64,000 bases of DNA from an uncultured delta proteobacterium. GTDB taxonomy: Bacteria > Desulfobacterota > RBG-13-43-22. Shown one piece after another: positions 4,178 to 45,495 of the stretch. Where the stretch lies: assembly GCA_963711835.1 (NCBI GenBank), contig CAVQFQ010000017.1, positions 352,001-416,000 on the forward strand. Reading direction: 5' to 3'. Position numbers and translations under genes: made by a program. The first letter of the stretch is position 1. Every line of letters starts with the position of its first letter. Below the pieces are notes generated by a model. That model was not told the origin of the DNA. It worked only from the letters and a program-made list of their open reading frames with translations, and searched no databases.

Positions 4178-4497
4178 GTCCCAACGTTACGTGATTTTTA
4201 AGCCATCCATTCATAGAGGGCTTCGGGGGTCTTGATTTCAAGGTTGTCCGAAAGGTAATCCGTAGCCCCAACCCGGCCCGAATTTCTAAGTTGGTAGGGA
4301 GCCGGGCATTCACCCAGGACGATAAATCGCTTTGGTGTTGGCCTGTTTCTAAACCCCATTATAAACTTCCTGCCCGGGTTCAGGCTGCCAGTGTTTTGGC
4401 GGACAATCCTTGAAATCAAGACCCCTGAAGCCCTTTAAGGTGATTTTATATTTTAAGGCGCTAGTCCTTCGGTTTGGGAATCACGTAACTTTGGGAC
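4178..4497. mobile_element. MITE-like nested element, copy 1 (outer TIR GTCCCAA[A/C]GTTACGTGATT; inner hairpin element 4217-4434)
   Basis: 19-bp outer inverted repeats; ~34-bp inner inverted repeats; homologous to 8754-9134 and 42721-43040. Confidence 0.85.
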
Positions 4498-4665
4498 TAG
4501 CCGCAAAAAAGATAGGACGAAACAGGGGCGCGGCGCTCTTAGGGAGCACCTGCCGGGAATTATTACCGTCTTACCATAGGATAGAAAGTTTGATATACTA
4601 TAAAAAGAAAGGGTTGTTTCGTTAGGCTGCGGCCCATTCAAGAAAATGGTTAAGAGGAGGATGTG

Positions 4666-5253
4666 ATGGCTAAACGGTTTAAACTTGGATTGCTTTGTTT
4701 TTTGTTGCTTTTGATGTTTTCAGGCTGCGGCTATAATACCATTCAAACCAACGAGGAGGGGGTCAAGGCCGCCTGGGGGGATGTGGAGGCGACCTATCAA
4801 AGGAGGAATGATTTGATACCCAATCTGGTGGAAGTCGTTAAGACCTATGCCAAACACGAGAAAGAGACGCTGACGGCTGTTACGGAAGCCAGGGCCAAGG
4901 TCGGAACTATTCAGGCGGGTAAGGAGCTCCTGAACGACCCCCAGGCCTTCAAGCAGTTTCAGGAGGCCCAGTCCGGCATGAGCAGCGCCCTTTCCCGTTT
5001 GCTGGTGGTGGCGGAAAACTATCCGGATCTCAAGGCCAATCAGAATTTTCTCGACCTTCAGCATCAACTGGAAGGAACGGAAAACCGGATCAATGTGGCC
5101 CGGGGCCGCTATAACAAAGCCGTTGAGGTGTTCAATTCCTCCATCCGAATTTTCCCCAACAGCCTGACCAATAAGTTTTTATTGGGTTTGAAACTCAAGG
5201 AACCTTTTAAGGCCGAAGCCGGGGCCGAAAAGGCGCCGCAGGTGAAATTTTGA
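4666..5253 (+). CDS. lemA: LemA family lipoprotein
   Basis: Lipobox-like [44 protein letters not shown]. Confidence 0.93.
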
Positions 5254-5255
5254 TC

Positions 5256-5397
5256 CAACCCTCCCCTCAATTCCGCCTCGGCGGATCTTCTTCCCCTCCG
5301 ACTCGGCTGAGCTCGTCGGAGGCCATCCAGGCCTTTCCCCCGGCCTGTCTGCCTGGACTGCCGAAGCAGGCGGGAGAGGGAAGAGAGAGGGGAAAGG
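5256..5397. repeat. REP-like mosaic of short palindromes within CT-rich/GA-rich arms
   Basis: TCCGCCTCGGCGGA, CCTCCGAC...GTCGGAGG and CTGCCTG...CAGGCGG hairpins; similar architecture at 14884-14998 and 28296-28345. Confidence 0.55.
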
Positions 5398-5401
5398 GAT
5401 A

Positions 5402-6271
5402 ATGAAAACAAGAGCGGCCCTGCTGATCTTTCTTATTCTTTGCCAACCTCTCTTTTCCTTTGCCTTGGAAGTTCCCAAACTCCAGGGCCATATCAATGAT
5501 TATGCCGGGATGATTTCCCCGGCGACCGAAAGCCGCCTGGCGGAGGAATTAAAGGCCTTTGAAGAGAGCGATTCCACCCAGATCGTAATTCTGACCGTCC
5601 CCTCGTTGGAAGGGGAAAATATCGAAAGCTTCGGGATCAAGGTAGCCGAAGCCTGGAAGATCGGGCAAAAAAATAAAGACAACGGCCTGATCCTGATTGT
5701 GGCTAAAGAAGAGCGCAAGATCCGGATCGAGGTGGGAAAAGGATTGGAAGGGCGCCTGACGGATTTGCTGGCCGGGAGGATCATTGATCTCTCCATAAAG
5801 CCCAGATTCAAAAGGGGGGACTTTGAGGGCGGATTCACGGCCGGTGTTTCCTCTCTGATTGACGCCGCTCGGGGAGAATTTAAAGCCGGGGATCATCCCG
5901 GCGCCAAAAATGAAAAAGGCCTGCCTTCCTTCTTTACCCTGTTCATTGTACTGGGGGTCGCCCTGTTGGTCCTGGGAAGCCTTTCCCGTGTTTTGGGAGG
6001 GGCGGTCGGGGCCTTGGGGCTGCCTCTGATTATGCAGGGTATCCTCTCTTTGAAGCTTCTAACCCTCGTCCTGTTCGGCCTGCTGGGTCTGGCCATTGGG
6101 ATTATGTTGCCGGCCCTTTTTTCATTGGGCGGCCTCCAGGGCCGGGGCGGCTTATGGTCCGGTGGAGGTTTTTTCGGATCCGGCGGCGGAGGGAGCAGCG
6201 GGGATTGGGGCGGGGGGTTCAGCGGTGGAGGAGGGGACTTCGGAGGCGGAGGCGCTTCCGGGGACTGGTAA
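5402..6271 (+). CDS. TPM-domain (YgcG-like) membrane protein with Gly-rich tail
   Basis: Signal peptide, WKIGQKNKDNG, IRIEVGKGLEG, C-terminal GGGGDFGGGGASGDW; follows lemA. Confidence 0.92.
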   Translation: MKTRAALLIFLILCQPLFSFALEVPKLQGHINDYAGMISPATESRLAEELKAFEESDSTQIVILTVPSLEGENIESFGIKVAEAWKIGQKNKDNGLILIVAKEERKIRIEVGKGLEGRLTDLLAGRIIDLSIKPRFKRGDFEGGFTAGVSSLIDAARGEFKAGDHPGAKNEKGLPSFFTLFIVLGVALLVLGSLSRVLGGAVGALGLPLIMQGILSLKLLTLVLFGLLGLAIGIMLPALFSLGGLQGRGGLWSGGGFFGSGGGGSSGDWGGGFSGGGGDFGGGGASGDW

Positions 6272-6279
6272 TCAACTAA

Positions 6280-6567
6280 AGGGTTCAAGGGTCCAAGGAT
6301 TCGAGGGGTCGAGGGAAAATCAGGCTGCCGGCGTTTTGGCGGATAATCCTCGAAATCAAGACCCCGTAAACCCTCTATACTACTAATGTGTATTTTCTCT
6401 AACTTTTATTAAACTTTTTTGTGATAGGTCTTCAACCTGTTTGGATCATTCGAATTTTGGTCATTTGAATTTGTTTCGTATTTCGAATTTCGTGCTTCGG
6501 ATTTGATTGCGGCTTTGCCGCGCTGAGAATGGATAGCTTAAAAATTAGGTAACGTTGGGACAAACTC
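6280..6567. repeat. Intergenic mosaic: 8-mer GGTTCAAG-type repeats, a fragment of the inner hairpin element (6320-6374), a TTCGAAT-type heptamer tract (6440-6505) and a solo outer TIR (6549-6567)
   Basis: CAGGCTGCCGGCGTTTTGGCGGATAATCCTCGAAATCAAGACCCC matches 4381-4425; GTAACGTTGGGACAAACTC is the reverse complement of 4172-4190. Confidence 0.7.
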
Positions 6568-6574
6568 TAAAGTT

Positions 6575-7206
6575 ATGAACGCTGAAAATTTTTTTAGTCG
6601 GGAAGAAAAGGATAGGTTATAAAAAAAACAACCCGAAAGGTTGAGACCCGAACCATGGGAGAGATCGCGGTCATGGTAGTCGATCGCAGCGATCCTTACC
6701 TGGAGGCTGAAATAGGCGGCGGTGTTCTTCTGGGAAGTCTCCTGAGTATAGCGGTGACCCTATTATTTTTTCATTCCTCCCTCTGGACCTATATCCCCTT
6801 GAGTCTGGTGTTATTCTTTCCCTTTCGCTGGATTATAGCCGGAACCCCCGGTCTCAAAAGGATTTTTATCCTTCCCTTAAAAAAAGAGGAGTCTGTTCGA
6901 AAAAGAGCCCTGCTGGCTTTTTATGAAAAAGGCCTGTACCGGACCCGGCTCAATACAGGGGTCTTGTTTTTCATTTCCTTATTGGAGAAAAAGGTCTGGG
7001 TCCTGGCGGATAAGGGCATTTACGAGAAAATTCAGCAGGAGACCCTGGACCGATTCGCCGATAACGTATCGCAGGGAATCAGACTGGGGCGGGCCTGTGA
7101 GACCTTGTGTCAGGCCATAGAGGAGATGGGGGAACGGCTGGCCGAACATTTTCCCCTAATAGAAGGGGATATAGATGAGTTGCCGGATGAAGTCTTAACC
7201 GAATAA
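6575..7206 (+). CDS. Second TPM-domain membrane protein, with an apparent frameshift near 6617-6628
   Basis: MNAENFFSREEKDR in one frame continues as KTTRKVETRTMGEIAVMVV in another; family motifs TGVLFFISLLEKKVWVLADKGI and DELPD. Confidence 0.8.
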
Positions 7207-7288
7207 ATAAATGATTCATATCTCCCACCCCCCAGAACACCTGTTCACTCGAGTTCAGACCGATTGCTAACCTACCCAACCCACTGCG

Positions 7289-8620
7289 ATGGTGAAGGAT
7301 ACAGAACTTAAAATAAAATCCAAGAAGCGGGTGATCCTGTTTACCCGCTACCCGATTCCGGGAAAGACCAAGACCCGTCTTATCCCTGCCCTGGGGCCGG
7401 AGGGTTCTTGTGATCTGCACCGTCACCTGGTTCATCACCTGCTCCGGATGCTTAAGCCTTATACGGATTCAAGCCAGATTTCCCTGGAAATTCGTTTCGA
7501 AGGGGGGACCTGTTCCCTGATGGAACAATGGCTGGGAGTCGGTCTTTCGTATGTCCCCCAGGGAGAGGGTGATTTGGGTCTGCGCATGGAGCGGGCTTTT
7601 GATGAGGCTTTTAACAAAGGCGATGAACGGGTGGTCCTGATCGGCAGTGATTGTCCGGCCCTGACCGGAAGGCAATTGGATGAAGCCCTGGCCGGGCTCA
7701 ACCAGAAGGATCTCGTCCTGGGTCCGGCCCAAGATGGAGGCTATTATCTTGTCGGCCTGCGACACCGGGCGCCGGGCTTATTTCAGAATAGGCCCTGGGG
7801 GACCGATCAGGTGCTGACAGAAACCCGGCAGGCGGCTGAAAGACAGGGCCTGAAGATCCTCTTATTGGAAAGCCTTTCGGATGTGGATCGCCCTGAGGAT
7901 CTTTCTTGCTGCCCAAAGACCTTTTTCTCCCGGACAGCCCCGCAGGCGGAGATGTCAATTATCATCCCGGCCTTGAATGAAGAGGTTTTTCTCGACGACA
8001 CCCTGGCCGGCATTCCCAAGGACCCGGACCTGGAAGTGATCGTCGTTGACGGCGGCAGCCGGGATAGGACCAGGGAACTGGCCTCGGCAGCCGGAGCCGG
8101 TCTCATTTCAAGCCTGCCGGGACGGGCCAGACAGATGAACACAGGGGCCAGGGCGGCCCGGGGCAGGGTCCTGCTTTTCCTTCATGCCGATACCCGGCTG
8201 CCTCAGGGATTCCGGGATCATGTCGGCCGGGTGCTGTCCGGTCCGGGGGTGGCGGCCGGGGCCTTTCAATTATCCATTACCCCCTCTCTTCCGGGTTTGA
8301 AAACCATTGAGCGCTTGGCCAACTGGCGCTCCAAGGTCCTCCAGTTGCCGTATGGGGACCAAGCCCTGTTCCTGGAGGCAGCTCTATTTCACAGTCTTGG
8401 AGGATACGCCGAATTGCCTATCATGGAGGACCTGGACCTGATTCAACGGCTGCGCCGATGCGGCCGTATTGCCATAGCCCCGATTCCCGTTGTTTCATCG
8501 TCCCGCCGCTGGCAGGCTGAGGGGATCTGGAAAAGGACCTGGAAAAATCAGGTGATCCTGATCGGTTATTTTGGGGGAGTTTCCACCGGCCGTTTGGCCC
8601 GCTGGTATCACCGAAAATAG
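7289..8620 (+). CDS. Fusion of TIGR04282 (DUF2064/CofC-like) and TIGR04283 GT2 transferases (rSAM/selenodomain- or arsenosugar-associated)
   Basis: FTRYPIPGKTKTRL, QGEGDLG, IGSDCP, GPAQDGGYYL, DVDRPEDL; then SIIIPALNEE, VVDGGSRD, GRARQMN, FLHADT, PYGDQ, PIMED. Confidence 0.88.
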   Translation: MVKDTELKIKSKKRVILFTRYPIPGKTKTRLIPALGPEGSCDLHRHLVHHLLRMLKPYTDSSQISLEIRFEGGTCSLMEQWLGVGLSYVPQGEGDLGLRMERAFDEAFNKGDERVVLIGSDCPALTGRQLDEALAGLNQKDLVLGPAQDGGYYLVGLRHRAPGLFQNRPWGTDQVLTETRQAAERQGLKILLLESLSDVDRPEDLSCCPKTFFSRTAPQAEMSIIIPALNEEVFLDDTLAGIPKDPDLEVIVVDGGSRDRTRELASAAGAGLISSLPGRARQMNTGARAARGRVLLFLHADTRLPQGFRDHVGRVLSGPGVAAGAFQLSITPSLPGLKTIERLANWRSKVLQLPYGDQALFLEAALFHSLGGYAELPIMEDLDLIQRLRRCGRIAIAPIPVVSSSRRWQAEGIWKRTWKNQVILIGYFGGVSTGRLARWYHRK

Positions 8621-8753
8621 ACCGGCCATTTCTTTAGAAAACAACGATCTGCCTATCGATCCCAGGTTGAACCGTAATGCCCGTAATAAGCCTTTTTTGA
8701 ATGGAGATTGCATTTTCTTCCCGATGAATTATAATAATAAAACTTTTGGGATA

Positions 8754-9134
8754 GTCCCAAAGTTACGTGATTCTCAAACCGAAGGAGTAGCCTCTTAAAA
8801 TATTAAGTTACCCCAAAGGGCTTCAGGGGTCTTGATTGCAAGGATTGTCCGCCAAAACGCCGGCAGTCTGAACCCGGGCAGGAAGTTTATAATGGGGTTT
8901 AGAAACAGGCCGACACCAAAGTCCCGCCTTTGGCGGGATGAATGCTTGGCTCCCAACCAACTTAGTCCGCCGCGGCGGACGGGCCGGGTTCTTCGCATCC
9001 AAAACAATGCTCAGTCCCACTCCTGCGGAGTGGATCCCAGTTTGGGGCTACGGATTACCGTTCGGACAACCTTGCAATCAAGACCCCTGAAGCCCTCAGC
9101 GAATGGTTGCTTAAAAATCACGTGACCTTGGGAC
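8754..9134. mobile_element. MITE-like nested element, copy 2 (inner element 8817-9096 carrying extra small palindromes)
   Basis: Outer TIRs GTCCCAAAGTTACGTGATT / AATCACGTGACCTTGGGAC; inner arms AGGGCTTCAGGGGTCTTGATTGCAAGG / CCTTGCAATCAAGACCCCTGAAGCCCT. Confidence 0.85.
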
Positions 9135-9168
9135 AGCCTCAAACTTTTTGATTCAGAAAGGACACGCC

Positions 9169-9417
9169 ATGCCGCCCGTCAAAATGTATACTTTAAGTAC
9201 CTGCAGCCACTGTAGAAATACAAAAAAATTTTTGAATGACTGCGGGGTGGCCTATGATTTTGTGGATGTGGACCTCCTCCAGGGAGAGGAACGGGCCGCC
9301 ATGATCGAAGAGGTCAAAAAATATAATCCCAATTGTTCTTTTCCCACTCTGCTGATCGGAGATAAAGTCATCGTCGGCCACCGGGAAGACGAAATCAAGG
9401 AGGCCCTGGGTCTATGA
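9169..9417 (+). CDS. Glutaredoxin/NrdH-like redoxin
   Basis: YTLSTCSHC active site, SFPT cis-Pro motif. Confidence 0.9.
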   Translation: MPPVKMYTLSTCSHCRNTKKFLNDCGVAYDFVDVDLLQGEERAAMIEEVKKYNPNCSFPTLLIGDKVIVGHREDEIKEALGL

Positions 9418-9749
9418 ACGAGGTGGAACAACTCCAGGCCATGCTGAAGAAAGTCCAGGAACCCAAGGGCTATTTTTTCAACCAGGATAGAGAAAGGGTT
9501 ATTGATCTCCTGGCCGCTCTCCTGGAAAATAAAAGGCGCTACGGATATATGTGCTGTCCCTGCCGTCTGGCCTCCGGAGACAGAAAACTGGATGAAGACA
9601 TCATCTGCCCCTGCCGCTACCGGGAGGAAGATGTAAAGGAATATGGGAGTTGTTACTGTAATCTTTATGTATCTCAGGATTGGAATCAGGGCCGGACAGC
9701 CCATGTCTATGTCCCGGAGCGGCGGCCTTTATCCAAACTGCCCTATTGA
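9414..9749 (+). CDS. Ferredoxin-thioredoxin reductase catalytic-subunit family protein
   Basis: CPC, CPC and CYC motifs; ATGA overlap with the redoxin gene. Confidence 0.9.
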   Translation: MNEVEQLQAMLKKVQEPKGYFFNQDRERVIDLLAALLENKRRYGYMCCPCRLASGDRKLDEDIICPCRYREEDVKEYGSCYCNLYVSQDWNQGRTAHVYVPERRPLSKLPY

Positions 9750-9934
9750 GGAGGTCCTCTATCAAAGGTCCAACCGGCGGCAACCGAGAATTTTTTCAAC
9801 ATACCTTTACAAAGATAGCCCGAATGCTTAGTATAAAAATGCTAATTAGAAAGGGAGGTTAGCTTTTTTATTAGATCAGGAACCGGTAAGGATTCGTTGA
9901 AAAGAAAAAGCGATCCTGCCCGCTGTCCCGGTCA

Positions 9935-10192
9935 ACCTCGAAGTTGCATAAAAATTGATCGATAAAGGGTTTTTTCTAAATTAAAACGGTGTGTCCTAAC
10001 GATTTCAGAGTTGAGATCGAAATTCACTCCAGGTGAGGTTTGGCGTCCTAAAAAGTATCGATCAATTTTTACCCTTCGGGAAAGTCTGGGAAGCCGCATC
10101 TCCTTTGTTGTCCAGGGCTCGCGGTATGCATATACAGCTTCGCCCTGGACGCCTCGGATCTGCAACTTCCGAAACTTTTGCAACATCGAGGT
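9935..10192. repeat. Nested inverted-repeat element
   Basis: Outer IR ACCTCGA[A/T]GTTGCA (13/14), inner perfect 16-bp IR TAAAAATTGATCGATA (9949-9964/10056-10071), third IR GTCCAGGGC/GCCCTGGAC. Confidence 0.7.
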
Positions 10193-10238
10193 CAAGAGGA
10201 TTTCAGGGGATCATCAATTTTATTCGGAGGAGGCGACC

Positions 10239-10760
10239 ATGTATTCCAGCACCGTAATGGATCATTTTAAGAACCCTCGCAATGTGGGGGAAATTGAGAA
10301 GGCCGATGGGATCGGGGAAGTGGGAAATCCTCTCTGCGGGGATATGATGACCATTTACCTCAAGATCGAAGAGGAAAAAATCAAGGATATAAAATTCAAA
10401 ACCTTCGGCTGCGGAGCCGCCATTGCCGTTTCCAGCATGTTGACTGAAATGGCCAAGGGAAAAACCCTGGATGACGCCAAGAAGATTACCAACAAATCGG
10501 TGGCCGAAGCCCTGGAGGGATTGCCCAAAAACAAGCTCCATTGCTCCAACTTGGGGGCCGACGCCTTACATATGGCGATTCAGGATTATGAAGACAAAAA
10601 AGCCGGCATTGTCAGGCCTAAACCCAAAAGGGAAGATAAGCTTGAGCATATCCATGTTCACAAAGAGGGTGAGAAGTGTTATTGTCCCTACTGTAATATA
10701 GAGGTCACGGAACAATCGGCCGTATGTGTCGGATGCGGCGCCACCTTAAAGCCGGCCTAA
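10239..10760 (+). CDS. iscU: Fe-S cluster scaffold IscU/NifU-N with a C-terminal zinc-ribbon extension
   Basis: MYSSTVMDHFKNPRNVG, GNPLCGD, FKTFGCGAAIA, KLHCSNL; GGAGG RBS; tail CYCPYC...CVGCG. Confidence 0.92.
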   Translation: MYSSTVMDHFKNPRNVGEIEKADGIGEVGNPLCGDMMTIYLKIEEEKIKDIKFKTFGCGAAIAVSSMLTEMAKGKTLDDAKKITNKSVAEALEGLPKNKLHCSNLGADALHMAIQDYEDKKAGIVRPKPKREDKLEHIHVHKEGEKCYCPYCNIEVTEQSAVCVGCGATLKPA

Positions 10761-10785
10761 CCTGATCGGCCGAGGAAACGGAATA

Positions 10786-11958
10786 ATGAAGATGATCAAC
10801 TTAGATTATATTTCAGCCAATCCCCTCCTGCCCGAAGTCCAGGAAGCCATGATCGAGGCCATCCGGAACAATTACGGAAATCCCTCCAGCCCTCACCAGG
10901 TAGGGGACTTGGCGGCCGAAGCCCTTGAAAAGGCCCGTGCTTCCGTAGCCTGTTTACTAAACTGCCCAGAATCCAAGGAGATCGTTTTTACCTCGGGGGG
11001 TACGGAAGCGATCAATCAGGCCGTCAAGGGAGTCGCCTTGGCCAACGCCAAAAAGGGAAAGCATATCGTCACCTCCAACATCGAACACAATGCCGTGCTG
11101 CGTACGCTGCGCCGCCTGCGAATGATGGACTATAAAGTTTCCTCGGTGGAAGTGGATCAAAACGGGCGGGTAAATCCGGCTGATGTGGCCAAGGCTATTA
11201 CCGACCAGACCATTCTGGTGACCATTATGCACAGTAATAATGAAATCGGCACCATCCAGCCCATCGAGGAAATCGCCCAAATCACCCGCGAGAAAAAAAT
11301 TCCCCTGCATTGTGACGGCGTGACTTCCGTGGGGGTGGTTCCCATGGATGTTCAAAAGCTGGGGGTGGATCTGCTCAGTTTTTCAGCCAACCAGTTCTAT
11401 GGTCCTTCCGGGGTCGGGGCCCTTTATATAAGGCAAGGCACGGTTCTCTGGCCTCTGCTGGATGGGGGGGTCCAGGAAAATAATAAACGGGCCGGGACCG
11501 AAAATCTGATCGGGATCATCGGCCTGGGGGTGGCCGCCGATTTGGCGGTCCGTGACCTGGAGATCCGCACCCGGCAGACCCTTAAGCTGAAGAAGAAATT
11601 GATTCAGGGCTTAACCGAAAAAGTTGAAGATATCTTTATCAATGGGCACCCGGACCTTTCGTTGCCCAATCTGGTATCCGTTTCCATAAAATATATCGAA
11701 GGGGAAGGGATTGTCCTAATGCTGGACGAGGAAAAAATCCTGGTTTCCACCCGTTCGGCCTGTGCGGCCGGGGCCCTGCAGGCCTCACATGTATTGCTGG
11801 CTATCGGAAGAGAGTTTGCCGACGCCCAGGGAACCCTGGTCATTACCTTCGGCCAGGAGACCTCCGAGGCCGATATCGATCGTTTTCTGGACGTCTTAAA
11901 AACGGTGGTCCAGACCTTGCGGGAAATGTCCCCGCTTTACAAAAAAGGGACCAAATAA
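10786..11958 (+). CDS. iscS: IscS/NifS-like cysteine desulfurase homologue lacking the PLP Schiff-base lysine
   Basis: YGNPSS, FTSGGTEA, IEHNAV, NNEIGTIQP, RAGTEN, RSAC; SANQFYGP in place of SxHKxxGP. Confidence 0.85.
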   Translation: MKMINLDYISANPLLPEVQEAMIEAIRNNYGNPSSPHQVGDLAAEALEKARASVACLLNCPESKEIVFTSGGTEAINQAVKGVALANAKKGKHIVTSNIEHNAVLRTLRRLRMMDYKVSSVEVDQNGRVNPADVAKAITDQTILVTIMHSNNEIGTIQPIEEIAQITREKKIPLHCDGVTSVGVVPMDVQKLGVDLLSFSANQFYGPSGVGALYIRQGTVLWPLLDGGVQENNKRAGTENLIGIIGLGVAADLAVRDLEIRTRQTLKLKKKLIQGLTEKVEDIFINGHPDLSLPNLVSVSIKYIEGEGIVLMLDEEKILVSTRSACAAGALQASHVLLAIGREFADAQGTLVITFGQETSEADIDRFLDVLKTVVQTLREMSPLYKKGTK

Positions 11959-11960
11959 GA

Positions 11961-12098
11961 TTGATGGATTCGTAAAAAGTCACCAAAGCCGTCACCCCGG
12001 CGAAAGCCGGGGTCCAGAACTACGTGAATTTACTGGATTCCCGTTTTCACGGGAATGACGTAAATGGGCTTTCGATGATTTTTTCTGCAACGTTTAGG
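11961..12098. repeat. REP-doublet (REPIN-like) element, copy 1
   Basis: TTGATGGATTCGTAAAAAGTC is identical to 18393-18413; inverted pair GTCACCCCGGCGAAAGCCGGGGTCCAG / CTGGATTCCCGTTTTCACGGGAATGAC. Confidence 0.75.
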
Positions 12099-12128
12099 AT
12101 AACATAGGGAAGAAAAGGAGAACGTCAT

Positions 12129-12329
12129 ATGACCCGGGTTAAAATCAAAGGCATGAGCTGTAACCACTGCGTTATGGCCGTGTCCAAAGCTTTAAAAGAA
12201 ATCGAGGGCCTTGAGGAGGTCAACGTGGATCTGGCCAAAGGGGAGGCAACCTTTACCGAAGCGAAGCCGGTTGATCCGCTATTAATCAAGGAACGGATTA
12301 AGAAAGCAGGCTATGAGGTAGCGTCCTGA
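12129..12329 (+). CDS. CopZ-like heavy-metal-associated chaperone
   Basis: GMSCNHC motif, 66 aa, AGY near the C-terminus. Confidence 0.9.
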
Positions 12330-12351
12330 AAGACAACGAAAGGAGAGAAAA

Positions 12352-12510
12352 ATGGATCGATATATTTGTTCGGTTTGCGGCTATATTTACGATCCGGCCA
12401 ACGGGGATCCCGACAGCGGGATAAAGGCCGGGACCCGATTCGAGGACCTGCCTGAGGATTGGACCTGCCCAATCTGCGGGGCTACCAAAGATAAGTTTGA
12501 AAAGGAATAA
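12352..12510 (+). CDS. rub: Rubredoxin (52 aa, below the ORF-track cutoff)
   Basis: Manual translation [52 protein letters not shown]; AGGAG RBS. Confidence 0.97.
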
Positions 12511-12538
12511 AGGGGACCAGGCCGAGGCTAAACGCATC

Positions 12539-13636
12539 ATGAAAAAAAAAGGCCATTCCCCTGAGTCCGATCGCGAATGGGTGATCCTCAAGGGGGCTAT
12601 TGAAAATACCAATGAAGGCTTCGTCACCATCGGCGAAGACCATAAGGTGATCATTTTTAATAAAGCCGCCGAGAAGATCTTCGGAGTCAGCCGCGAGGAA
12701 GTGCTCGGCAGGGATTTGGGCCTCATTTTAACCTCGGAGTGCAATCAGGGACATAAGGAAGCGGTTTCCCGTTATTTGGCCAACCGAAAACCTAAACTGA
12801 TCGGCCATCAAAGCGAGTTCCAGACGGCCCGGCCCAATGGGGAGGTTTTCCCCTTATCCATTTCCTTTTCGGTCTCGGAAGTGTCCGGTAAATTATATTT
12901 CACTGGTCTGATCCAAGACTTGACCGAGACCAAGGCCCTTCAGGAACAGGTGGCCCGATCGGAGCGACTGGCTGCTGTGGGTCAACTGGTGGCCGAAATC
13001 ACCCATGAGATCAAAAACCCTTTAGTGATGATCGGAGGATTTGCCCGGCAGTTGATTCGAAGCATCCCGGATGAAAAAAGCCAATCCAAGCTGAAGGTCA
13101 TCGCCGAGGAGGTCCAGCGCCTGGAAAAATTGATCCTGGAACTCCGGGAGGTTTACCGGCCCAAGAGCCTTGCTTTTGAACCTTTGAACCTTATGCAGTT
13201 GTTGGAAGAGGTCTATTTCCTTTCCAGAGAGGATTGTGAAAAAGGGAATATCCAGATCCGGCTGTTGAAAATGAAGCGGCCTATTCGAATTGAAGGAGAC
13301 CCGGAGAAGTTGAAACAGGTCTTTTTGAATTTAATCCGCAACGCCATGGAAGCCATGGAAAAAGGCGGCAGTCTGATTATCAAACCCAAGGTGGTTAAAG
13401 ACAAGGTGGAGATCTTCATCGAGGATACCGGTCCGGGTATTTCTCAAAAGGACCAGGAAAAGCTATTCACCCCGTTCTTTACGACCAAAAGCAAAGGAAC
13501 CGGCCTGGGACTTTGCGTCTCCAAGAGGATTATCGAAGACCACCCGGGCAGCACCCTGCGCCTGGACAGCGTGGAGGGCAAAGGGACCGTCGTCAAAATC
13601 ACCCTGCCTCTTTACCAAAAGGCAAAAAAGGCTTAA
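12539..13636 (+). CDS. Cytoplasmic PAS-domain sensor histidine kinase (FixL/NtrB-like)
   Basis: PAS (IFNKAAEKIFG), H-box EITHEIKNPL, N-box QVFLNLIRNA, DTGPG, PFFTTK, GTGLGL. Confidence 0.92.
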   Translation: MKKKGHSPESDREWVILKGAIENTNEGFVTIGEDHKVIIFNKAAEKIFGVSREEVLGRDLGLILTSECNQGHKEAVSRYLANRKPKLIGHQSEFQTARPNGEVFPLSISFSVSEVSGKLYFTGLIQDLTETKALQEQVARSERLAAVGQLVAEITHEIKNPLVMIGGFARQLIRSIPDEKSQSKLKVIAEEVQRLEKLILELREVYRPKSLAFEPLNLMQLLEEVYFLSREDCEKGNIQIRLLKMKRPIRIEGDPEKLKQVFLNLIRNAMEAMEKGGSLIIKPKVVKDKVEIFIEDTGPGISQKDQEKLFTPFFTTKSKGTGLGLCVSKRIIEDHPGSTLRLDSVEGKGTVVKITLPLYQKAKKA

Positions 13637-38122: not shown

Positions 38123-38144
38123 AATGACCCAATCAGAAGGTTGA

Positions 38145-38360
38145 TTAGACAAAGAGCGTCCCGGCTTTCTGGACAGAAGCAAAAATTGGCCCGTTATCTG
38201 ATTTCTTTTTCTTTTTCTTCTTTTTTTTGTCCTTGTCTTTCTTGGCTACTTGAGTGTAAGCGCTTATCTTCCCCTCTTGGGTGATATTTCCGCCGAATAC
38301 TGCCGGCGAGGTAGACAAACCAAAAAGAAGGGCTATCATCAAGGCTGCCAGTTTTTTCAT
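38145..38360 (-). CDS. Small secreted Lys-rich hypothetical protein
   Basis: AAGGAGGT RBS, MKKLAAL signal peptide, poly-Lys tract. Confidence 0.6.
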   Translation of the reverse strand: MKKLAALMIALLFGLSTSPAVFGGNITQEGKISAYTQVAKKDKDKKKKKKKKKSDNGPIFASVQKAGTLFV

Positions 38361-38414
38361 CTCAATCACCTCCTTTCTTTTGCGACATTATGATAAGGAA
38401 ACGACCTAACGGCT

Positions 38415-38612
38415 TTAATTACTTTTTGGCTTGGTCTCGACGGCGTTAGTTCCCTGGTTTTCCTCGCCGTCGGGCTTTTCTTCCATGGCCTTTTTAAAAG
38501 AGTGTATGGATTGCCCCAGACTCTTCCCCAAATCCGGGAGGGCCTTGGCCCCGAAGACCAAAAAAGCAATCACCAGAATAATTATGAGTTCTTGGGTACC
38601 GATACCAAACAT
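38415..38612 (-). CDS. tatA: Twin-arginine translocase TatA/E
   Basis: MFGIGTQELIIILVIAFLVFGAKALPDLGKSLGQSIHSFKK. Confidence 0.93.
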   Translation of the reverse strand: MFGIGTQELIIILVIAFLVFGAKALPDLGKSLGQSIHSFKKAMEEKPDGEENQGTNAVETKPKSN

Positions 38613-38662
38613 GGCTTTCACCTCCTTTTATTCAGGCAGGGTAAAAAAAGGTATCGGACGTC

Positions 38663-38980
38663 CTAACAGAGAAGAGGAGAATTTTGTCGCTCGAGAGGAG
38701 AGGGGAGAAAAAATAGATGTGGAAGGTTTTCAAAAAGGTTAACCAAAGGCATAACGAAAAGGATGGCGGACCCGACCAGGTGTAGGGAGTTTTTATGGCT
38801 TCCCTGGAGATCTTCCTGATTGGGATTTTCAAAAGATAGATTTGTGGCCAGAAAGTCAGCTTCCATCAAATTGTAGTAATCAAGGTAGATGGAAAGGCCC
38901 AGGAACAGAAAGGAGACCGCACCAATCAACAGGATTCGCCTGACTTTAGATGCGCTCCTGATTTTCATACTCAACATCAT
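38663..38980 (-). CDS. Hypothetical membrane protein
   Basis: ORF with an N-terminal TM segment, upstream of tatA. Confidence 0.45.
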   Translation of the reverse strand: MMLSMKIRSASKVRRILLIGAVSFLFLGLSIYLDYYNLMEADFLATNLSFENPNQEDLQGSHKNSLHLVGSAILFVMPLVNLFENLPHLFFLPSPLERQNSPLLC

Positions 38981-39176
38981 TAATGGATCACCGTTTAGCG
39001 GCTATTCAGAAAAGTAATCTCTTAAAGTTAGGGCAAACCCAACCTAAAGCCTAACTTCCGCACCTTTTTTAATTTTAATGCAATTATTTTATCTGTCAAT
39101 CTATAAAAAATTCTCGGTCAACCCCTCGGTCTCGCTGACAAGGTACTGGAATTAGGTATAGATTCAAATGAGTGCG

Positions 39177-40883
39177 TTAGGCCGATTCGATAGCTTTAAT
39201 ACGAAGTTGCAGGAGAGAATCGCCTCCCCGGTGCGAGACGGTGGGAATATAGGCCAGATCGATCAGATCTCCGGGTTCCATTTCCATCTCCCCCATTCCA
39301 AATCCGATTCCGTTTAGGATTACCCCCTTTTGTTCCAGGCGCAGGCGGAGATGGCCGTTCCCAACCAGCCGCCGATCCCTGATACGGACTCCCCGGGTGG
39401 CCAAGACCGGCTCCGGATTCCCAGCCCCGAAGGGGGCCAGGTTGGGCAGGTAAGGAACCACCTCCCTCCTCAAATCCGGGAAGTCCATTTCTCCCTCGAT
39501 AGACAGAGCCGGCCTGAGGGTTGTTTCGGGTAGCGACCCGGCCGCCAATTCTTCAAAGGCCTTTTCAAACAAAGGCAGATCTTTGGCCTTGAGGGTAACT
39601 CCGGCGGCAGCAGCATGGCCTCCGAATTTGAGGAGAAGGTTTTCCAGGGCCTCTAATCCTTTGACCAAATGGAAGCCTTCGATACTCCGTCCCGAGCCGT
39701 GGGCCAGTTCTCCCTCGATGGCAAAAACGAAGGCCGGCCGGGACCAACCCTCCACCAACCTGGAAGCTACAATACCCAAAACGCCCCGGTGCCAGTTTTC
39801 CGACCCGAAAACCAGACTCCTTTTGGAAGCGGTCGCCGGTTGGAGCTGGAAATGGTTTTCGATTTCCTTGAGAATGGCCTTTTCCATTTCCTGGCGCCGG
39901 GTGTTTTCCTGGTGCATCAATTGGGCTATTCGGCGGGCTTCCTCCCGGTCGTTGCTGAAAAACAATTCGACCCCTGCCGCAGCCGACTGCAGCCGTCCCA
40001 AGGCGTTGATCCGGGGCGCGAGACGGAAGGAAACATCATAGGAAGAAACCGGTTCCCCGGATTGTAAGCCGCTGACCTCCTTCAGGGCCGCCAGGCCGGT
40101 TCGCAGACCTTTGGTCATTTCCGCAAGCCCCTCCCGGACCAGGATTCTATTGGCTCCGATCAAGGGAACCATGTCGGCCAAGGTCCCCAGGGCCGCCAGA
40201 TCCAGATACGGTCTTAAATTGGGTTTCCCTTGGGCGAAAAGACCCTGTTGGTCCAGGGCCTGGCGAAGGGCAATAACCAGATAAAGGGCCACCCCAACTC
40301 CGGCCAACTCCTTGAAAGGGAAGGAACAGCCCTCCTGCCTGGGGTTAATAACAGCCAGGGCCGGTGGGGGGCCTTGGCGGGGAATTTGATGATGATCGGT
40401 AACGATTACTTCCAGGCCCAGTTGCCGGGCAAAGGCGATCTCGTGGTGATTGGAGATCCCGCAATCCACCGTTATGATCAGAGAAACTCCCTGCTCTTTG
40501 AGCTCTGAAATCCCGCTTAGGGAAAGGCCGTAACCTTCCCTGGTTCGATGGGGCAGGTAGAAGGTAGTATCCGGAGAAAGGGGCTTCAGGAAGTGAAGCA
40601 GCAGGGCCGTAGCCGTGATCCCATCGGCATCATAATCGCCGAAAACGGCCATGCGTTCCTTTCCCTGAATAGCCCGGCTGATGCGGGCAACCGCTTTTTC
40701 CATATCCTTTATCAGCCCGGGAGGAGGCAGGTTGGAGAGGGAGGGAGAAAGAAATTCCCGGGCTTGATCCAAATCCTTTATGCCCCGATTGAGCAGAAGC
40801 CGGGTCACTTGAAGAGGAAGGTTGAGTTGCCTGCTCAGGTCTTCCGCCTGGTCAGGGTCAGGAGTTAAGAGGTTCCATTTCAT
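39177..40883 (-). CDS. recJ: ssDNA-specific exonuclease RecJ
   Basis: GDYDADG, TVDCG, TDHH, GTLAD, PRINALGR, GSGRS, FGGHAAAAG, PFGAGNPEP. Confidence 0.96.
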   Translation of the reverse strand: MKWNLLTPDPDQAEDLSRQLNLPLQVTRLLLNRGIKDLDQAREFLSPSLSNLPPPGLIKDMEKAVARISRAIQGKERMAVFGDYDADGITATALLLHFLKPLSPDTTFYLPHRTREGYGLSLSGISELKEQGVSLIITVDCGISNHHEIAFARQLGLEVIVTDHHQIPRQGPPPALAVINPRQEGCSFPFKELAGVGVALYLVIALRQALDQQGLFAQGKPNLRPYLDLAALGTLADMVPLIGANRILVREGLAEMTKGLRTGLAALKEVSGLQSGEPVSSYDVSFRLAPRINALGRLQSAAAGVELFFSNDREEARRIAQLMHQENTRRQEMEKAILKEIENHFQLQPATASKRSLVFGSENWHRGVLGIVASRLVEGWSRPAFVFAIEGELAHGSGRSIEGFHLVKGLEALENLLLKFGGHAAAAGVTLKAKDLPLFEKAFEELAAGSLPETTLRPALSIEGEMDFPDLRREVVPYLPNLAPFGAGNPEPVLATRGVRIRDRRLVGNGHLRLRLEQKGVILNGIGFGMGEMEMEPGDLIDLAYIPTVSHRGGDSLLQLRIKAIESA

Positions 40884-41059
40884 GCAGGCAACTTAACCCA
40901 GGACCGGGCTCCGATCAAGGGGATTCTGTTTTTCCGTTGTCAATTCCCGCCGGTTTAAGTATAATTCCGGGTATGAAGGGTTTTTCTTAATATTAACTGT
41001 CTTATAATTGTATTTCCATGGTGGGGCTGCCTTTTCTTTAGTCTGTGGCTCTCGGGCTG

Positions 41060-41170
41060 GTCTTTTCCTCGGACTTATCAACGGGGGATACTTTACCCCC
41101 TCCGCATTCCCGCCCGCTATAACTCAGCGGTCGAGCTGCGGTTTCCCCCATTGATAAATCCGAAAAAGAC
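41060..41170 (-). repeat. Long imperfect hairpin between divergent recJ and selA
   Basis: Arms TCGGACTTATCAACGGGGGA / TCCCCCATTGATAAATCCGA. Confidence 0.6.
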
Positions 41171-41282
41171 GGCGCCCTTCCGCCAATGACCTCAGAAAAA
41201 ACAGCCCCACCGTTTCGGTTAATGTTTAGACTATTTTGAGACTGTTAATAACTACTTGCCAATAGGACTAATCCAAGCGTCC

Positions 41283-42680
41283 ATGAATCCCGAACAAACA
41301 GAACTGCTTAAAAAAATTCCGGCCGTTACCCTGCTCCTTGAAGAACCTGAATGTCAGGCGTTTCTGGCCCGAACTTCACGGAAACATCTCCTGGCCGTGA
41401 TCCGGGAGATCCTGGATCAGAAAAGAAACCAGATTCTTTCCGGGCAAAGCCCAGCCCTTGAAAAGCATCATTTATGGGAGGAAATCGGGGAACGCCTCGA
41501 CTCCAAGGCCGCCTACCACCTGCGGCGGGTGGTCAATGGAACGGGGGTCATTGTTCATACCAACTTAGGACGATCCTTGTTGGCCGCCCAGGCCCTGGAG
41601 CAGATGCAATGGGTGGCCCGCTATTATTCCAATCTGGAGTTTGACCTGGAACAGGGCCGGCGTGGCAGCCGTTATACCCATGTAGAGGATATCCTCATGG
41701 AACTCACCGGGGCTGAAGCGGCTTTAGTGGTGAATAATAATGCGGCGGCGGTTCTTTTAGCTCTCAATACCCTGGCCAAGGGCAAGGAAGTTATTGTCTC
41801 CCGGGGGCAATTGGTGGAAATCGGCGGTTCCTTTCGGATCCCGGAAGTAATGACCCGGAGCGGTGCTGTGTTAAAAGAAGTGGGGACCACCAATAAAACC
41901 CACCTCAGGGACTATGAGGCGGCCATCTCCGAGGAAACGGCCCTGTTGCTGAAGGTCCATACCAGTAATTACCGGATTGTCGGCTTTACGGCCGAGGTGT
42001 CTCTGGAGGAGCTGGTGGACCTGGGGCAGCGGCATCGCCTTCCGGTCATGGAAGACCTGGGAAGCGGGACCCTGCTGGACGTCTCACGCTGGGGATTGGA
42101 GAAAGAACCTACCGTGGTTGAAGTGGTTCAATCCGGCTGCGATCTGGTTACCTTCAGCGGGGACAAGTTGTTGGGGGGGCCCCAGGCGGGAATTATTGTG
42201 GGCCGGGAAAAATTGGTCCAGGCCTTGCGAAGCAATCCTTTGAACCGGGCCCTGCGCATTGACAAATTGACCCTGGCTGCCCTGGAAGCCACCTTAAAGC
42301 TATACCGGAACGAGGAACAAGCCCTGCGGGATATTCCCACGCTGGCCCAAATGGCCATTCCCTTGCCGCAACTGCACCGACGGGCCAGGCGCCTTTATCG
42401 CCTATTAACCAAGGATCCGCTTCCCGAAATAAGCCTCGAGATCATCCCTACCACCTCTCAAGTGGGGGGCGGTGCCCTGCCCTTGTCCTTTCTTGACTCC
42501 TATGCCTTGAGTTTTACACCCGGCCGGATCTCGGTCGCAGAATTAGAGCAGAAATTTCGCAGCTTTTCGACCCCCATTATCGGGCGGATTGAAAAAGACA
42601 GATTCCTGCTGGATGTTCGGACCCTGCAGGACGACGACCCGCCCTTTATTTCCGCCTGCCTTAAAGAACAAGCCGGGTAG
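41283..42680 (+). CDS. selA: L-seryl-tRNA(Sec) selenium transferase
   Basis: VNGTGVIVHTNLGRS, VNNNAAA, SRGQLVEIGGSFRIP, EVGTTNKTH, FSGDKLLGGPQAG. Confidence 0.96.
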   Translation: MNPEQTELLKKIPAVTLLLEEPECQAFLARTSRKHLLAVIREILDQKRNQILSGQSPALEKHHLWEEIGERLDSKAAYHLRRVVNGTGVIVHTNLGRSLLAAQALEQMQWVARYYSNLEFDLEQGRRGSRYTHVEDILMELTGAEAALVVNNNAAAVLLALNTLAKGKEVIVSRGQLVEIGGSFRIPEVMTRSGAVLKEVGTTNKTHLRDYEAAISEETALLLKVHTSNYRIVGFTAEVSLEELVDLGQRHRLPVMEDLGSGTLLDVSRWGLEKEPTVVEVVQSGCDLVTFSGDKLLGGPQAGIIVGREKLVQALRSNPLNRALRIDKLTLAALEATLKLYRNEEQALRDIPTLAQMAIPLPQLHRRARRLYRLLTKDPLPEISLEIIPTTSQVGGGALPLSFLDSYALSFTPGRISVAELEQKFRSFSTPIIGRIEKDRFLLDVRTLQDDDPPFISACLKEQAG

Positions 42681-42720
42681 ACCGGGATAGGGATTAGGCC
42701 GCCTCTTAAAATTCGAGTTT

Positions 42721-43040
42721 GTCCCAAAGTTACGTGATTTTTAAGCACTCCATCCATAGAGGGCTTCAGGGGTCTTGTTTTCAAGGATTGTCCGCCAAAA
42801 CGCCGGCAGCCTGAACCCGGGCAGGAAGTTTATAGGTGGGTTTAGAAACAGGCCAACACCAAAGCGATTTATCGTCTTGGATGAATGCCCGGCTCCCAAC
42901 CAACTTCGAAATTCGGGCCGGGTTGGGGCTACAACTTACCTTTCGGACAACCTTGAAAACAAGACCCCTGAAGCCCTTTGGGGTGATTTAATATTTTAAG
43001 AAGCCTACCTTTCGGTTTGAGAATCACGTAACTTTGGGAC
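42721..43040. mobile_element. MITE-like nested element, copy 3 (inner element 42760-42977, inverted relative to copies 1 and 2)
   Basis: Perfect outer TIRs GTCCCAAAGTTACGTGATT / AATCACGTAACTTTGGGAC; same 320-bp length as copy 1. Confidence 0.87.
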
Positions 43041-43045
43041 TATCC

Positions 43046-44545
43046 CTAAAATTCCAGCCGGAGTTGGCCGCCGCTGCGATCCTGGTGAAATTTCTCCAGC
43101 TCAACTTTTAACCAATCAGGCCAAAAAAGCTCATCAATGGGATAGCTGGCATCCAGGGCCTGGAAGGAACCCCGGCCGGCCACCTTTTGGATCCTGCCCT
43201 GTTGATTATAGCGCACCTCATCTACACCGACCAACCGAGCTACGGCTTTATTGATTTCATCCAAATCCTTGTCGTAGGGATTATCACCTTTAAATGCCCT
43301 TTGAACAGCCAGTTCCTGCAGACATTCCGGGCCGCGATGCCATTCCTTGAAGGAAGGGAAAAACATCGGGCCATAGGAAACCCAGAATTCAATATACTTG
43401 GCCCCGGCATTGTAGGTCACCCAGACCGATCCGCCCTGGCTGACGCTGCCCCTGACGATACTGTCATCCCCCATGGCCACGTTCTTGTCCTTCAGCAGGG
43501 ATTCCACCCCGCCGAACTTAAGGCCTACCTCCTTGGTTCTGGTCTGGCTTTCCCCTTCCTGAAAGGTCCGCACCGCCTGGGGAAGTTTTATCAGGGCCGG
43601 GAAAAGGTTCTTTTTCAGCCCCTCGGCAATGCCTACGGTAACCCCCCAGCCCGATTCAGGGTTGGGGATGACCACCTCAGCCCGGGAATTTTTATAGTGG
43701 TCCACCAGTTCCAAGCCCAGTTCCCGGCGCAATTGGAATATCTCTTTGCCCCGGAAGAGGGAACCCACATTTCCGAAATAAACCCCCTGAAAGATATCGG
43801 GCATGAGGGGTTCTTCTCGTAACCGGCGGGTTTGGCATCCTCCGGAAGAACAGATAGTCATCTCGGCACCCTCATATTCTTTCTCGGTGATCCCTTCCAG
43901 CCGGCGGTGGGAGCAGGATTCGGAGCTGGCGACGAAGGTTCCATCAATCAGGGCGTAACAGAAAGGTTCAAAGGCCTTGGCGTCATTTAAGGCAATCAGG
44001 TGCGTTTCTCGGCCGTCATAGACCAGGGCCGCCAAAGCGAAGGTGGCCCGACCGGCCAGCTTCTCCAATAGTTTTTGACCGGCCTCAAAGGTCAGGCCTT
44101 CCTGGGTTAGATATTTGTGCAGGAGAGCGCCGATGATTTCGGTCTTGTTGTCGGTCTGAAGGGCATAGTCACCCTCCAACTCGGCCTTCAGGTCCCCTTC
44201 GGTAATCAGATACCCATCCATGGTCAAAGCAACCTTCAACCGGGACCCGCCCCGAGGGTAGATTTCCACCGGCTCGGCATTAATCTTTTCGGCAATTTTT
44301 CTCTTGGTGTAGCCCAAATTTCCCAAGGCCGCCATGGGATCGAGGTCTTGGAAATTTCGGATGACATTATAATCGATGACTTCAGCGATCCGGCCCAAGC
44401 CCTTATGAATGTAAATCCCCTTTTTGGTTCCGATGGCTATTCCGGTACTGGCCTTGCCCCGGTGCTGGCAGGCCCCGGTGGCCAAAAAGGTTTTGTTGAC
44501 CAACTCAGGGTCGCCAGGTCCGTAAATGCCTACGATACCGTCCAC
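43046..44545 (-). CDS. Amidophosphoribosyltransferase (PurF)-like protein lacking the N-terminal Cys
   Basis: MDGIVGI, QHRG, VIPNPESG, RTF, DDSIVRGS PRPP loop; GGAGG RBS before GTG. Confidence 0.8.
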   Translation of the reverse strand: MDGIVGIYGPGDPELVNKTFLATGACQHRGKASTGIAIGTKKGIYIHKGLGRIAEVIDYNVIRNFQDLDPMAALGNLGYTKRKIAEKINAEPVEIYPRGGSRLKVALTMDGYLITEGDLKAELEGDYALQTDNKTEIIGALLHKYLTQEGLTFEAGQKLLEKLAGRATFALAALVYDGRETHLIALNDAKAFEPFCYALIDGTFVASSESCSHRRLEGITEKEYEGAEMTICSSGGCQTRRLREEPLMPDIFQGVYFGNVGSLFRGKEIFQLRRELGLELVDHYKNSRAEVVIPNPESGWGVTVGIAEGLKKNLFPALIKLPQAVRTFQEGESQTRTKEVGLKFGGVESLLKDKNVAMGDDSIVRGSVSQGGSVWVTYNAGAKYIEFWVSYGPMFFPSFKEWHRGPECLQELAVQRAFKGDNPYDKDLDEINKAVARLVGVDEVRYNQQGRIQKVAGRGSFQALDASYPIDELFWPDWLKVELEKFHQDRSGGQLRLEF

Positions 44546-44646
44546 GGTTATTTCCTCCTCTTAGATGGGATTGGGCCTCAAACGAAAGGAGTATAGGGGC
44601 AACCCCCAAACGGGTCAAGAAAGAAAAATAAATCCGGCGCCCCATC

Positions 44647-45156
44647 CTACCGGACCGCCGGGCTGGCAAATATTCCGGTCCAATAGGACCCGCAGGAACC
44701 CCCGGCGGCAAAACCGATTCCAATTTCCCTGTAAAAAGGATTCAGCATATTTTCCCGGTGGGTCTTATTTTTAAACCAGGCCTCAAAAATAAGCCGCGGA
44801 GATTCCTGTCCGCAGCCGATGTTTTCTCCGAAGGCCCGCCAGGCATAGCCGCTCTCCTCCAAGCGGGCTTTTGGCCCCTGGCCATCGGGATTGGTATGCT
44901 GGAAAAAATCCCTGCCCGACATATCCCGGCTATGGTTTCTGGCGACTCGGCTGAGCAAAGGGGATTTTTTCAGGATCGGGACTCCCAGCGTCCTCCTTTT
45001 TTGGTTCACCAGGACTGCCAGTTCCTCCTCAAAGACCAGGCCTTGGGTTTGGAGTTTATTGAAGGGCTGAACCGCCCAGGCAGACAAAACCAGGGCCGTA
45101 AGCGTAACAGCCGTTACGATAAAAAAAATAAGTCCCGACTTTAGGAAGACAACCAT
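44647..45156 (-). CDS. CAP/SCP-domain secreted protein
   Basis: ARNHSRDM, FFQHTNPDG, GENIG, HRENML, EIGIG. Confidence 0.88.
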   Translation of the reverse strand: MVVFLKSGLIFFIVTAVTLTALVLSAWAVQPFNKLQTQGLVFEEELAVLVNQKRRTLGVPILKKSPLLSRVARNHSRDMSGRDFFQHTNPDGQGPKARLEESGYAWRAFGENIGCGQESPRLIFEAWFKNKTHRENMLNPFYREIGIGFAAGGSCGSYWTGIFASPAVR

Positions 45157-45197
45157 CTTTTCAGGAACTGCCCGGACGCGGTTGATTGGGTGGGGAG

Positions 45198-45495
45198 TTA
45201 TTAAGGGTCTCAAAATAATAGTGACCAAGAGGGACCGGGGGGTCTTCTTCTCTGGGGTTGTCCAAAGGGTAACTCATCGCCCTATCCCGGCCCGGACGGC
45301 TAAGTGGATTAGGTGCAGGGCATTCACCCGAATCCGTTTCGGGCATTAGTGTAGGCCTGTCTCTAATTGATCCCGATTTGGCCGGCAAAGAAGCTTTGGG
45401 CTTGAAGGTGGACAACCCAGAAAAGAAGACCCCCCGGTCCCATTTAATGCAAGCTCCTCAATTTCATGTCAAGACTACTATGAGACCCTTAATAA
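45198..45495. mobile_element. Second type of outer element (15-bp perfect IR TTATTAAGGGTCTCA) enclosing a divergent copy of the inner hairpin element (45231-45441)
   Basis: IRs at 45198-45212 and 45481-45495; inner arms GGGACCGGGGGGTCTTCTT..GGTTGTCCA / TGGACAACCC..AAGAAGACCCCCCGGTCCC; core aligns with 4217-4434. Confidence 0.75.

Follow-up and report, generated by a model that had tools for sequence, protein, structure and literature searches.

What kind of element is the short palindromic repeat that recurs in the 64,000-nucleotide DNA stretch examined here (hereafter the window)? The window (positions 352,001 to 416,000 of the forward strand of contig CAVQFQ010000017.1, GenBank assembly GCA_963711835.1) comes from an uncultured delta proteobacterium of the Desulfobacterota lineage RBG-13-43-22. 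A first-pass annotation, made from the sequence alone, had described four copies and one fragment of a ~215-nt element closed by inverted arms, and had proposed a mobile structured RNA or single-stranded DNA element that, unlike ordinary MITEs (miniature transposable elements with inverted repeats), conserves its interior and its pairing. The copies and the fragment were found where it had placed them. Our analysis suggests, with a probability of about 0.55, that the element is a ~215-bp hairpin DNA cassette carried within gene-less MITEs of unrelated ends that are moved in trans, and that two short boxes in its interior are likely a cis-acting helper site.

The cassette lies within mini-transposon shells

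Copies were gathered from the genome (3.9 Mb, 89% complete) by iterated profile search in which no motif was used. The search returned 155 pieces, 112 of them near full length, and merging gave 124 pieces longer than 150 nt, or 122 after leaving out contig C27, a 97.6% near-duplicate of the window start (window 3113–12958) that is probably a second strain in the assembly. Clustering of the flanks placed the cassette between the ends of a larger element, which we call the shell. Both ends of one shell type were recognized in 104 of the 122 copies (type A 40, type C 29, type D 18, and type B 17) and a single end in 11; the profiles recognized no end in the remaining 7, five of which have D-, C-, or F-like ends when read by eye. 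Inspection of relatives by eye adds types E, F, and G, so that at least seven end types carry the cassette. The cassette nearly always lies within such a gene-less unit of 290–390 bp with target-site duplications: repeats of 8 bp within one mismatch flank 21/30 type-A and 18/25 type-C copies, compared with 3–4% of mismatched flanks (anchored copies only; 10 A and 4 C copies, for which no anchor was possible, were left out), and TA is exact on the flanks of 11/15 type-B copies. With 122 long copies and these duplications, the element is mobile and multi-copy, as first supposed.

The shell ends resemble those of known insertion sequence (IS) families. Type-C ends are identical at 19–20 of 25 positions to the ends of a complete ISH6 element in genome G096, type-B ends at 19–21 of 25 to an IS630 element in genome G007, and type-A ends, measured on copy 3, at 14–17 of 25 to ISH6 ends; on this sequence resemblance, type A is probably a second ISH6-like or Mutator-like end. 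Mutator-like elements are described as generating 8–9-bp repeats, and ISH6 as preferring AANATNTT, an AT-rich target (PMC3942029). Type-D shells are without inverted ends and have a short TA/TAG-like repeat.

The units show the features of MITEs, namely IS-like terminal inverted repeats (types A, B, and C), family-typical duplications, no coding capacity, small size, and many copies. Like MITEs of ISH6 (p-MULT 2, Mutator-like) and IS630, they are non-coding and intergenic, have IS-type inverted ends and 8-bp AT-rich or TA duplications, and reach high copy number. They differ in that one homologous interior with long inverted arms of its own is found across at least seven end types, that this cassette flips and swaps shells, and that it is not a remnant of either transposase gene. 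The first-pass annotation had drawn the limits of the element at the cassette, and for every copy it overlooked the transposon ends and target-site duplications farther out. Its contrast with ordinary MITEs is not supported, since the true ends are found beyond those limits and are of IS type with duplications; its view that the interior is constrained held, as described below.

The whole units in the window span 292–393 bp. Copy 1 (4172..4503, plus strand) is a type-A shell with inverted, likely ISH6/Mutator-like ends, flanked by an 8-bp repeat (CAAAAATG/CAAAAAAG, 7/8 identical); it encloses a cassette at 4217..4434 (plus strand), an inner hairpin with arms at ~4217–4250 and ~4400–4434. Copy 2 (8748..9140, minus strand) is also of type A, with an exact 8-bp duplication (AAACTTTT), and its cassette (8817..9096, minus strand) is longer through small palindromes and a 53-bp insertion (~8990–9042) that is common to ~10 genomic copies. 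Copy 3 (42715..43046, plus strand) is a type-A unit downstream of selA (identified with Pfam), with an exact 8-bp duplication (TAAAATTC); its cassette (42760..42977), which with that of copy 2 makes up the minus-strand cassettes of the window, is inverted relative to the shell when compared with copies 1 and 2. Copy 4 (45201..45492, plus strand) is a type-B shell with IS630-type ends and TA on both sides, and its cassette (45231..45441, plus strand) has B-type arms and interior. The fragment (6307..6374, plus strand) comprises a type-A cassette right arm and adjoining interior, with a shell-end piece at 6524–6570. A cassette-less type-D shell at 3970..4084 (plus strand) retains a palindromic arm scar at 4019–4044; contig C27 is without this shell and thus displays its empty site.

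The arms of copies 1–3 consist of a 27-bp near-perfect inverted repeat, a 1-nt bulge, and 7 bp, i.e., ~34 bp in total. This agrees with the compensated arms of ~33–35 bp described earlier, whose three variants read as written; copy 4 has a different arm sequence that is still paired, and the ordered motifs reported for its interior are present. Folding was far more stable than expected from shuffled sequences (z −9.95 for copy 1 and −7.91 for copy 4, with 0/200 shuffles each).

Several smaller repeats were seen around these copies. Tiny palindromes enter or replace parts of cassettes, with the forms CCCGCC..GGCGGG (44 in the genome) and TCCGCC...GGCGGA (9 in the genome); those in copy 2 lie at window positions 8923–8937 and 8966–8980. 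Other short repeats cluster at 6277–6520, where they interrupt the fragment and its shell end, and contigs from RNA sequencing runs pile up there.

Two interior boxes are constrained

Among the 122 copies, parsimony assigns 1.6 changes per column to two boxes in the interior, CCGGCCC and GGCCTG, compared with 7.8 in the other 64 G/C columns and 8.7 in the 68 A/T columns. Box 1 (4273..4279 in copy 1, plus strand) is the lowest-change 7-column window of the alignment, and box 2 (4340..4345, plus strand) lies ~65 nt 3' of it. Change in the boxes is thus roughly one-fifth of that at other G/C positions, which marks the interior as constrained, and since their fold-back partners vary (3 to 9 changes), conversion of the kind seen in the arms does not explain the constraint. 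CCGGCC is invariant in 49 representatives, the inner arm motif TT[GT]TCC is as stable as the boxes, and box spacing is 64–66 nt in most copies and fixed across four genera. Alignments of 49 and 70 sequences, sets partly picked by these motifs, agree on the boxes. The constraint is one-sided, each box heading a ~35-nt unit whose far end decays, as would suit either DNA sites that bind protein in a set orientation or the core of an RNA.

Only 2 of the 122 long copies overlap a long open reading frame (ORF), and among co-directional neighbouring genes the cassette points in the same direction 41 times and in the opposite direction 37 times. Deletions and insertions exist in the interior (+53, −21, +9 to +13, and −53), and some of the copies that bear them have multiplied; the sizes are suggestive of helical phasing, with too few events to count.

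These patterns bear on whether the cassette is neutral stuffing, a palindromic repeat of some age that shells captured, that recombination spread among them, and that serves only as length between the ends. Such an origin would suit the multiplied deletion and insertion copies, the other palindromic cargo that the same shell types carry elsewhere, and the cassette-less shell that is polymorphic between the window and C27. We nevertheless consider it improbable, given the five-fold lower change in the two boxes among copies collected without using them, the persistence of boxes and spacing in genera with different arms and shells, and the excess of cassette-bearing over empty shells (99 vs 24) despite repeated loss.

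Matched arms, flipped interiors, and cassette exchange, probably as DNA

The cassette is inverted relative to its shell in 23/104 copies (A 9, D 8, B 3, and C 3). In type A, the position-9 mismatch of the arms tracks the shell, and the position-28 bulge mostly tracks the interior, so exchanges occur within the arms rather than at one fixed point. A census of shells gave 99 full, 9 partial, and 24 cassette-less examples, and the latter retain short palindromic arm scars with variable breakpoints. Cassettes have also crossed between shell types: in a tree of 103 interiors, A-type interiors occupy 8/28 type-C shells in several subclades, and the strongly supported branches force at least three shell changes, with bootstrap values that had not settled.

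Covariation was assessed on 53 representatives with an in-house test similar to R-scape (not R-scape itself), in which invariant pairs give no power. Five pairs covaried at E < 0.05, all in the outer arm; in the core, where the first-pass annotation had asked for covariation, none did, with the best non-arm pair at E 3.2. Arm mismatches comprised 26 G-T and 28 A-C, i.e., no G-U bias. Covariation limited to the arms and the absence of G-U bias are as DNA arm conversion predicts, and template switching is reported to cause both arm homogenisation and spacer inversion (PMC8604942). Arm symmetry is thus explained by intra-element conversion, an outcome that the annotation had itself named as counting against its reading. 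The cassette likely acts as a single-stranded DNA hairpin, and it offers a clean example of DNA arm conversion mimicking RNA covariation.

Is the cassette an RNA?

The competing view is that the cassette encodes a small structured RNA, ribozyme-like or guide-like, in which the long stem closes the molecule, the GGCC boxes form the core, and the MITE shells are mere vehicles. Its attractions are the stable fold, the box spacing fixed across four genera, and the one-sided conservation of two boxes whose mutual pairing is possible in every sequence of both alignments (49 and 70), together with weak hints of crossing box pairing (z ~3) and the precedent of a small RNA riding a MITE, ssr9/MITEPpu9 (PMC12288879). 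Because the box-box helix never varies, however, its pairing is uninformative on covariation, and no interior pair covaries significantly. Copies 1 and 3 do permit the proposed pseudoknot (CCCAAC/GTTGGG and CCGGC/GCCGG), yet it is not conserved, with 62% of cells paired over 49 sequences and 411/500 shuffles as high. Fold-back helices were 82% paired, with 4/500 shuffles as high, in a count that takes in the inner arm and makes no correction for relatedness. In an alignment-tolerant scan (528 window pairs per strand), the highest z values were 3.3 and 3.9 (spread 1.2), and no pair stood out. Wobble counts in the interior were inconsistent, favouring G-T over A-C in one count (427 vs 318, pseudo-replicated) and A-C over G-T in a second (53 vs 77).

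Guide function fared no better: in four tests on 72 elements, an interior matched the flanks, shell, and junctions around it no better than it matched those belonging to other shells, so the suggestion of a guide-type RNA found no support. Rfam gave no match in the window at gathering or E-value thresholds, the best hits (E 1.3–1.4) being unrelated models around copies 1 and 4, in line with the earlier statement that the element cannot be assigned to a known family. Cassette sequence occurs in three metatranscriptome runs of one study, only as contigs that carry no information on ends, strand, or level, with depth summed over many copies. Taken with the lack of orientation bias, the pairing, guide, and Rfam results make an RNA possible but unlikely. 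Of the original proposal of a mobile structured RNA or single-stranded DNA element, the RNA half is thus disfavoured by arm-only covariation, the absence of G-U bias, the failed pseudoknot, the lack of a guide match, and even orientation, and the DNA hairpin half is likely to stand.

Size and shape also recall the bridge RNAs (seekRNAs) of IS110/IS1111 elements, which PMC11208160 gives as ~150–250 nt, since both form rods with internal loops. The cassette differs in having no loop that matches its flanks or junctions and no interior covariation, nor does it resemble the non-coding ends at 13 IS110 loci, taken from this genome and from five relatives. Membership was rejected on the grounds that flank matches over the 72 elements equalled the null and that the best E value at IS110 loci was 1.5. 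The nearest case of a non-coding passenger moved in trans is ssr9/MITEPpu9, which differs in using one IS family (PMC12288879).

Search for a mobilising enzyme

Consistent with the first-pass annotation, no mobilising protein was found in the window: the 56 ORFs scanned with Pfam, out of 119 of at least 100 aa, included no transposase, reverse transcriptase (RT), TnpB, or IscB family. No IS256, IS630, or ISH6-like transposase was found in the 89%-complete genome, with the caveat that the control for PF06782, the profile used for ISH6-like proteins, matched nowhere either. An enzyme owned by the cassette was not found either. Half copies in this genome, in which an autonomous form was sought, adjoin ordinary genes; when 1170 ORFs in the neighbourhood of 252 copies were clustered, the 25 largest clusters, read by eye, contained no recurring mobile protein; and an interior profile found no cassette adjoining 87 transposase or RT loci and no match at 13 IS110, 10 Y1, and 1 RT locus (best E at IS110 loci 1.5).

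The genome has a single RT gene, of group II intron type by its flanks. As no cassette copy lies within 3 kb of it, an RT-linked element (retron or group II intron) was rejected, as was a spliced-intron reading of the cassette. One type-C cassette with a 2.1-kb interruption was considered as an autonomous form and dismissed, the interruption being another IS, bounded by inverted ends of its own. This IS (G000:C10:53700-55840) has two ORFs of 190 and 415 aa, with a DDE_Tnp_1 match.

Y1 transposases of the TIRYT type are more abundant, with 11 gene matches in this genome and a presence in 20/20 relatives. It could be supposed that the cassette is a non-autonomous single-strand element, similar to REPINs or TIR repeats, that a host HUH tyrosine transposase put into MITE shells. 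The cassette is indeed a long hairpin, and the inverted repeats of these genes start with GGGGTCA or GGGGACG, while most cassette arms contain GGGGTC. The arms nonetheless miss the TIRYT consensus GGGG[AT][CG]A[CG], as given in 10.1101/279083, at the seventh base, and GGGGTC is wholly missing in one divergent group. No full cassette lies beside any of the 30 Y1 loci searched (of ~180 matches in the class; best partial E 0.009), and neither a clearly free-standing cassette nor a scar-free shell was seen in this genome. We therefore regard this origin as distinctly improbable. As a separate observation, all 21 genomes of the class contain TIRYT-type Y1 genes whose inverted repeats have the form GGGG[AT]C[AG], with up to 26 matches per genome.

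Membership in the REP or TIRYT repeats themselves was likewise considered. The cassette shares with REPINs and TIR repeats (mobilised by RAYT and TIRYT HUH enzymes) the multi-copy intergenic hairpin with matched arms, in a genome where TIRYT-type genes are common. It differs in having no GTAG or CGTC tag, no cognate gene that bears cassette arms, and copies that sit inside DDE-type shells with duplications. The arms read GGGGTCT or GGGTCTC, or are without motif, and the GTAG, CGTC, or GGGG[AT][CG]A[CG] tag (consensus as given in 10.1101/279083 and PMC3733652) was not encountered; with the arm tag failing and no cassette repeat flanking either the Y1 genes of this genome or the 30 loci, membership was rejected.

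Distribution of cassettes and shells

The element is conserved outside this genome, as a sequence-only model matches 19/20 genomes of the same family, with 1 to 117 matches each (both strands counted). The class is represented in the genome collection by this one family only. In other families of the phylum, 146 genomes yielded one marginal match (E 7e-4) under stricter filters. Wider scans covered 28/64 parts of the genome collection and 8/64 parts of the metagenomes; among the matches listed, the true ones came from Deltaproteobacteria, Thermodesulfobacteriota, or Pseudomonadota records, RBG_13_43_22 included. Of 129 metagenome and viral loci, 11 were true copies, all of identical build. Viral scans by cassette pattern gave 2 and 9 matches with no true cassette, scans by shell-end pattern gave 0 and 16 matches, none of which had a second end close by, and BLAST against plasmids and phages gave no meaningful match. 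A divergent form in two genera has other arms, but its boxes and spacing are unchanged. In some relatives (L007, L055, L135, and L139), a double hairpin of ~45 nt is inserted into the left or the right arm, at one and the same position. No description of the cassette was found in the literature searched, with ISfinder, subscription journals, and supplements lying outside that search.

Shells also occur with other contents. Type-D shells in 12 genomes outside the family carry many kinds of palindromic repeat as cargo, and no transposase with type-D ends was found. A type-A-like shell in another family (L579, G301:C7:310800-311450) holds a different cargo with its own inner 12-bp inverted repeat, which contains a DnaA-box-like 9-mer. 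A second, unrelated rod-shaped passenger (~200 nt) was seen within IS630-type ends near-identical to those of the G007 element, with copies on contig C17 at ~43790–44047 and ~392990–393249 (window ~40990–41249) and on contig C22 at ~9790–10047.

A model for the cassette and the evidence against it

We hypothesize the following sequence of events, the first step of which is seen in the copies themselves. The jumping unit is shell plus cassette, and it leaves 8-bp duplications (types A and C) or TA (type B). Cognate transposases would act in trans on the shells, to judge from the end matches: ISH6 for type C, IS630 for type B, and probably a second ISH6-like enzyme for type A. During replication the cassette may then fold back as DNA, and template switching or recombination between the arms would keep them matched, flip the interior, and sometimes delete it, the outcomes observed among the copies. 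Recombination in shared arm sequence would allow cassettes to cross between shell types, as the interior tree suggests. Finally, and most tentatively, copies with intact boxes may multiply because a host protein on the boxes or on the folded strand helps with end pairing or priming, or helps the long hairpin to survive. A cis-acting DNA helper is preferred here because neither flipping nor gene orientation matters and no RNA signal was found.

One lead for the helper function of the cassette, and a lead only, is a priming hairpin with a DnaA box. In the ABC primosome, a single-stranded DNA hairpin with a DnaA-box-like 9-mer in its stem (the A-site) is reported to suffice for DnaB loading (PMC6127211). 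The inner end of each cassette arm similarly reads TT[GT]TCCA plus two bases. The left 9-mer ends in CACA in only 7/72 elements, however, six of which fit TT[AT]TNCACA; the common arm 9-mers are one or two bases away from the DnaA box, and the main type-A form is farther still.

Several observations weigh against a trans-moved cassette with helper boxes. The transposases that would act on the shells were not found in the 89%-complete genome, and no cassette-binding protein was identified, which counts against the last step. The cassette-less type-D shell at 3970–4084 is polymorphic between the window and C27, from which it follows that this shell had no cassette when it moved or shed it after arrival, and shells may move without a cassette. 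As type-D shells elsewhere carry unrelated palindromes, the cassette is not generally needed by shells, and some copies with interior deletions have multiplied all the same. The boxes, being one-sided and mutually pairable, fit RNA as well as DNA, and the fold-back interior helices exceed shuffles even if the inner arm and relatedness contribute to that count.

A bolder variant would make the cassette a parasite of parasites: an RNA or single-stranded DNA module that has, since the origin of the class, invaded non-autonomous derivatives of any local IS family and raised their spread through a novel activity (priming, cleavage, or guiding) of its two tandem GGCC-headed units. We rate this as rather unlikely.

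Conclusions

The interior of a MITE is commonly regarded as what is left of its own parent element. In the present case one interior is shared, family-wide, by shells of different transposase superfamilies, exchanged among them, and constrained in two boxes. A neutral cassette would be no more than an unusually layered repeat; if its boxes raise transposition independently of the transposase family, it would be a portable cis-acting enhancer of IS mobility.

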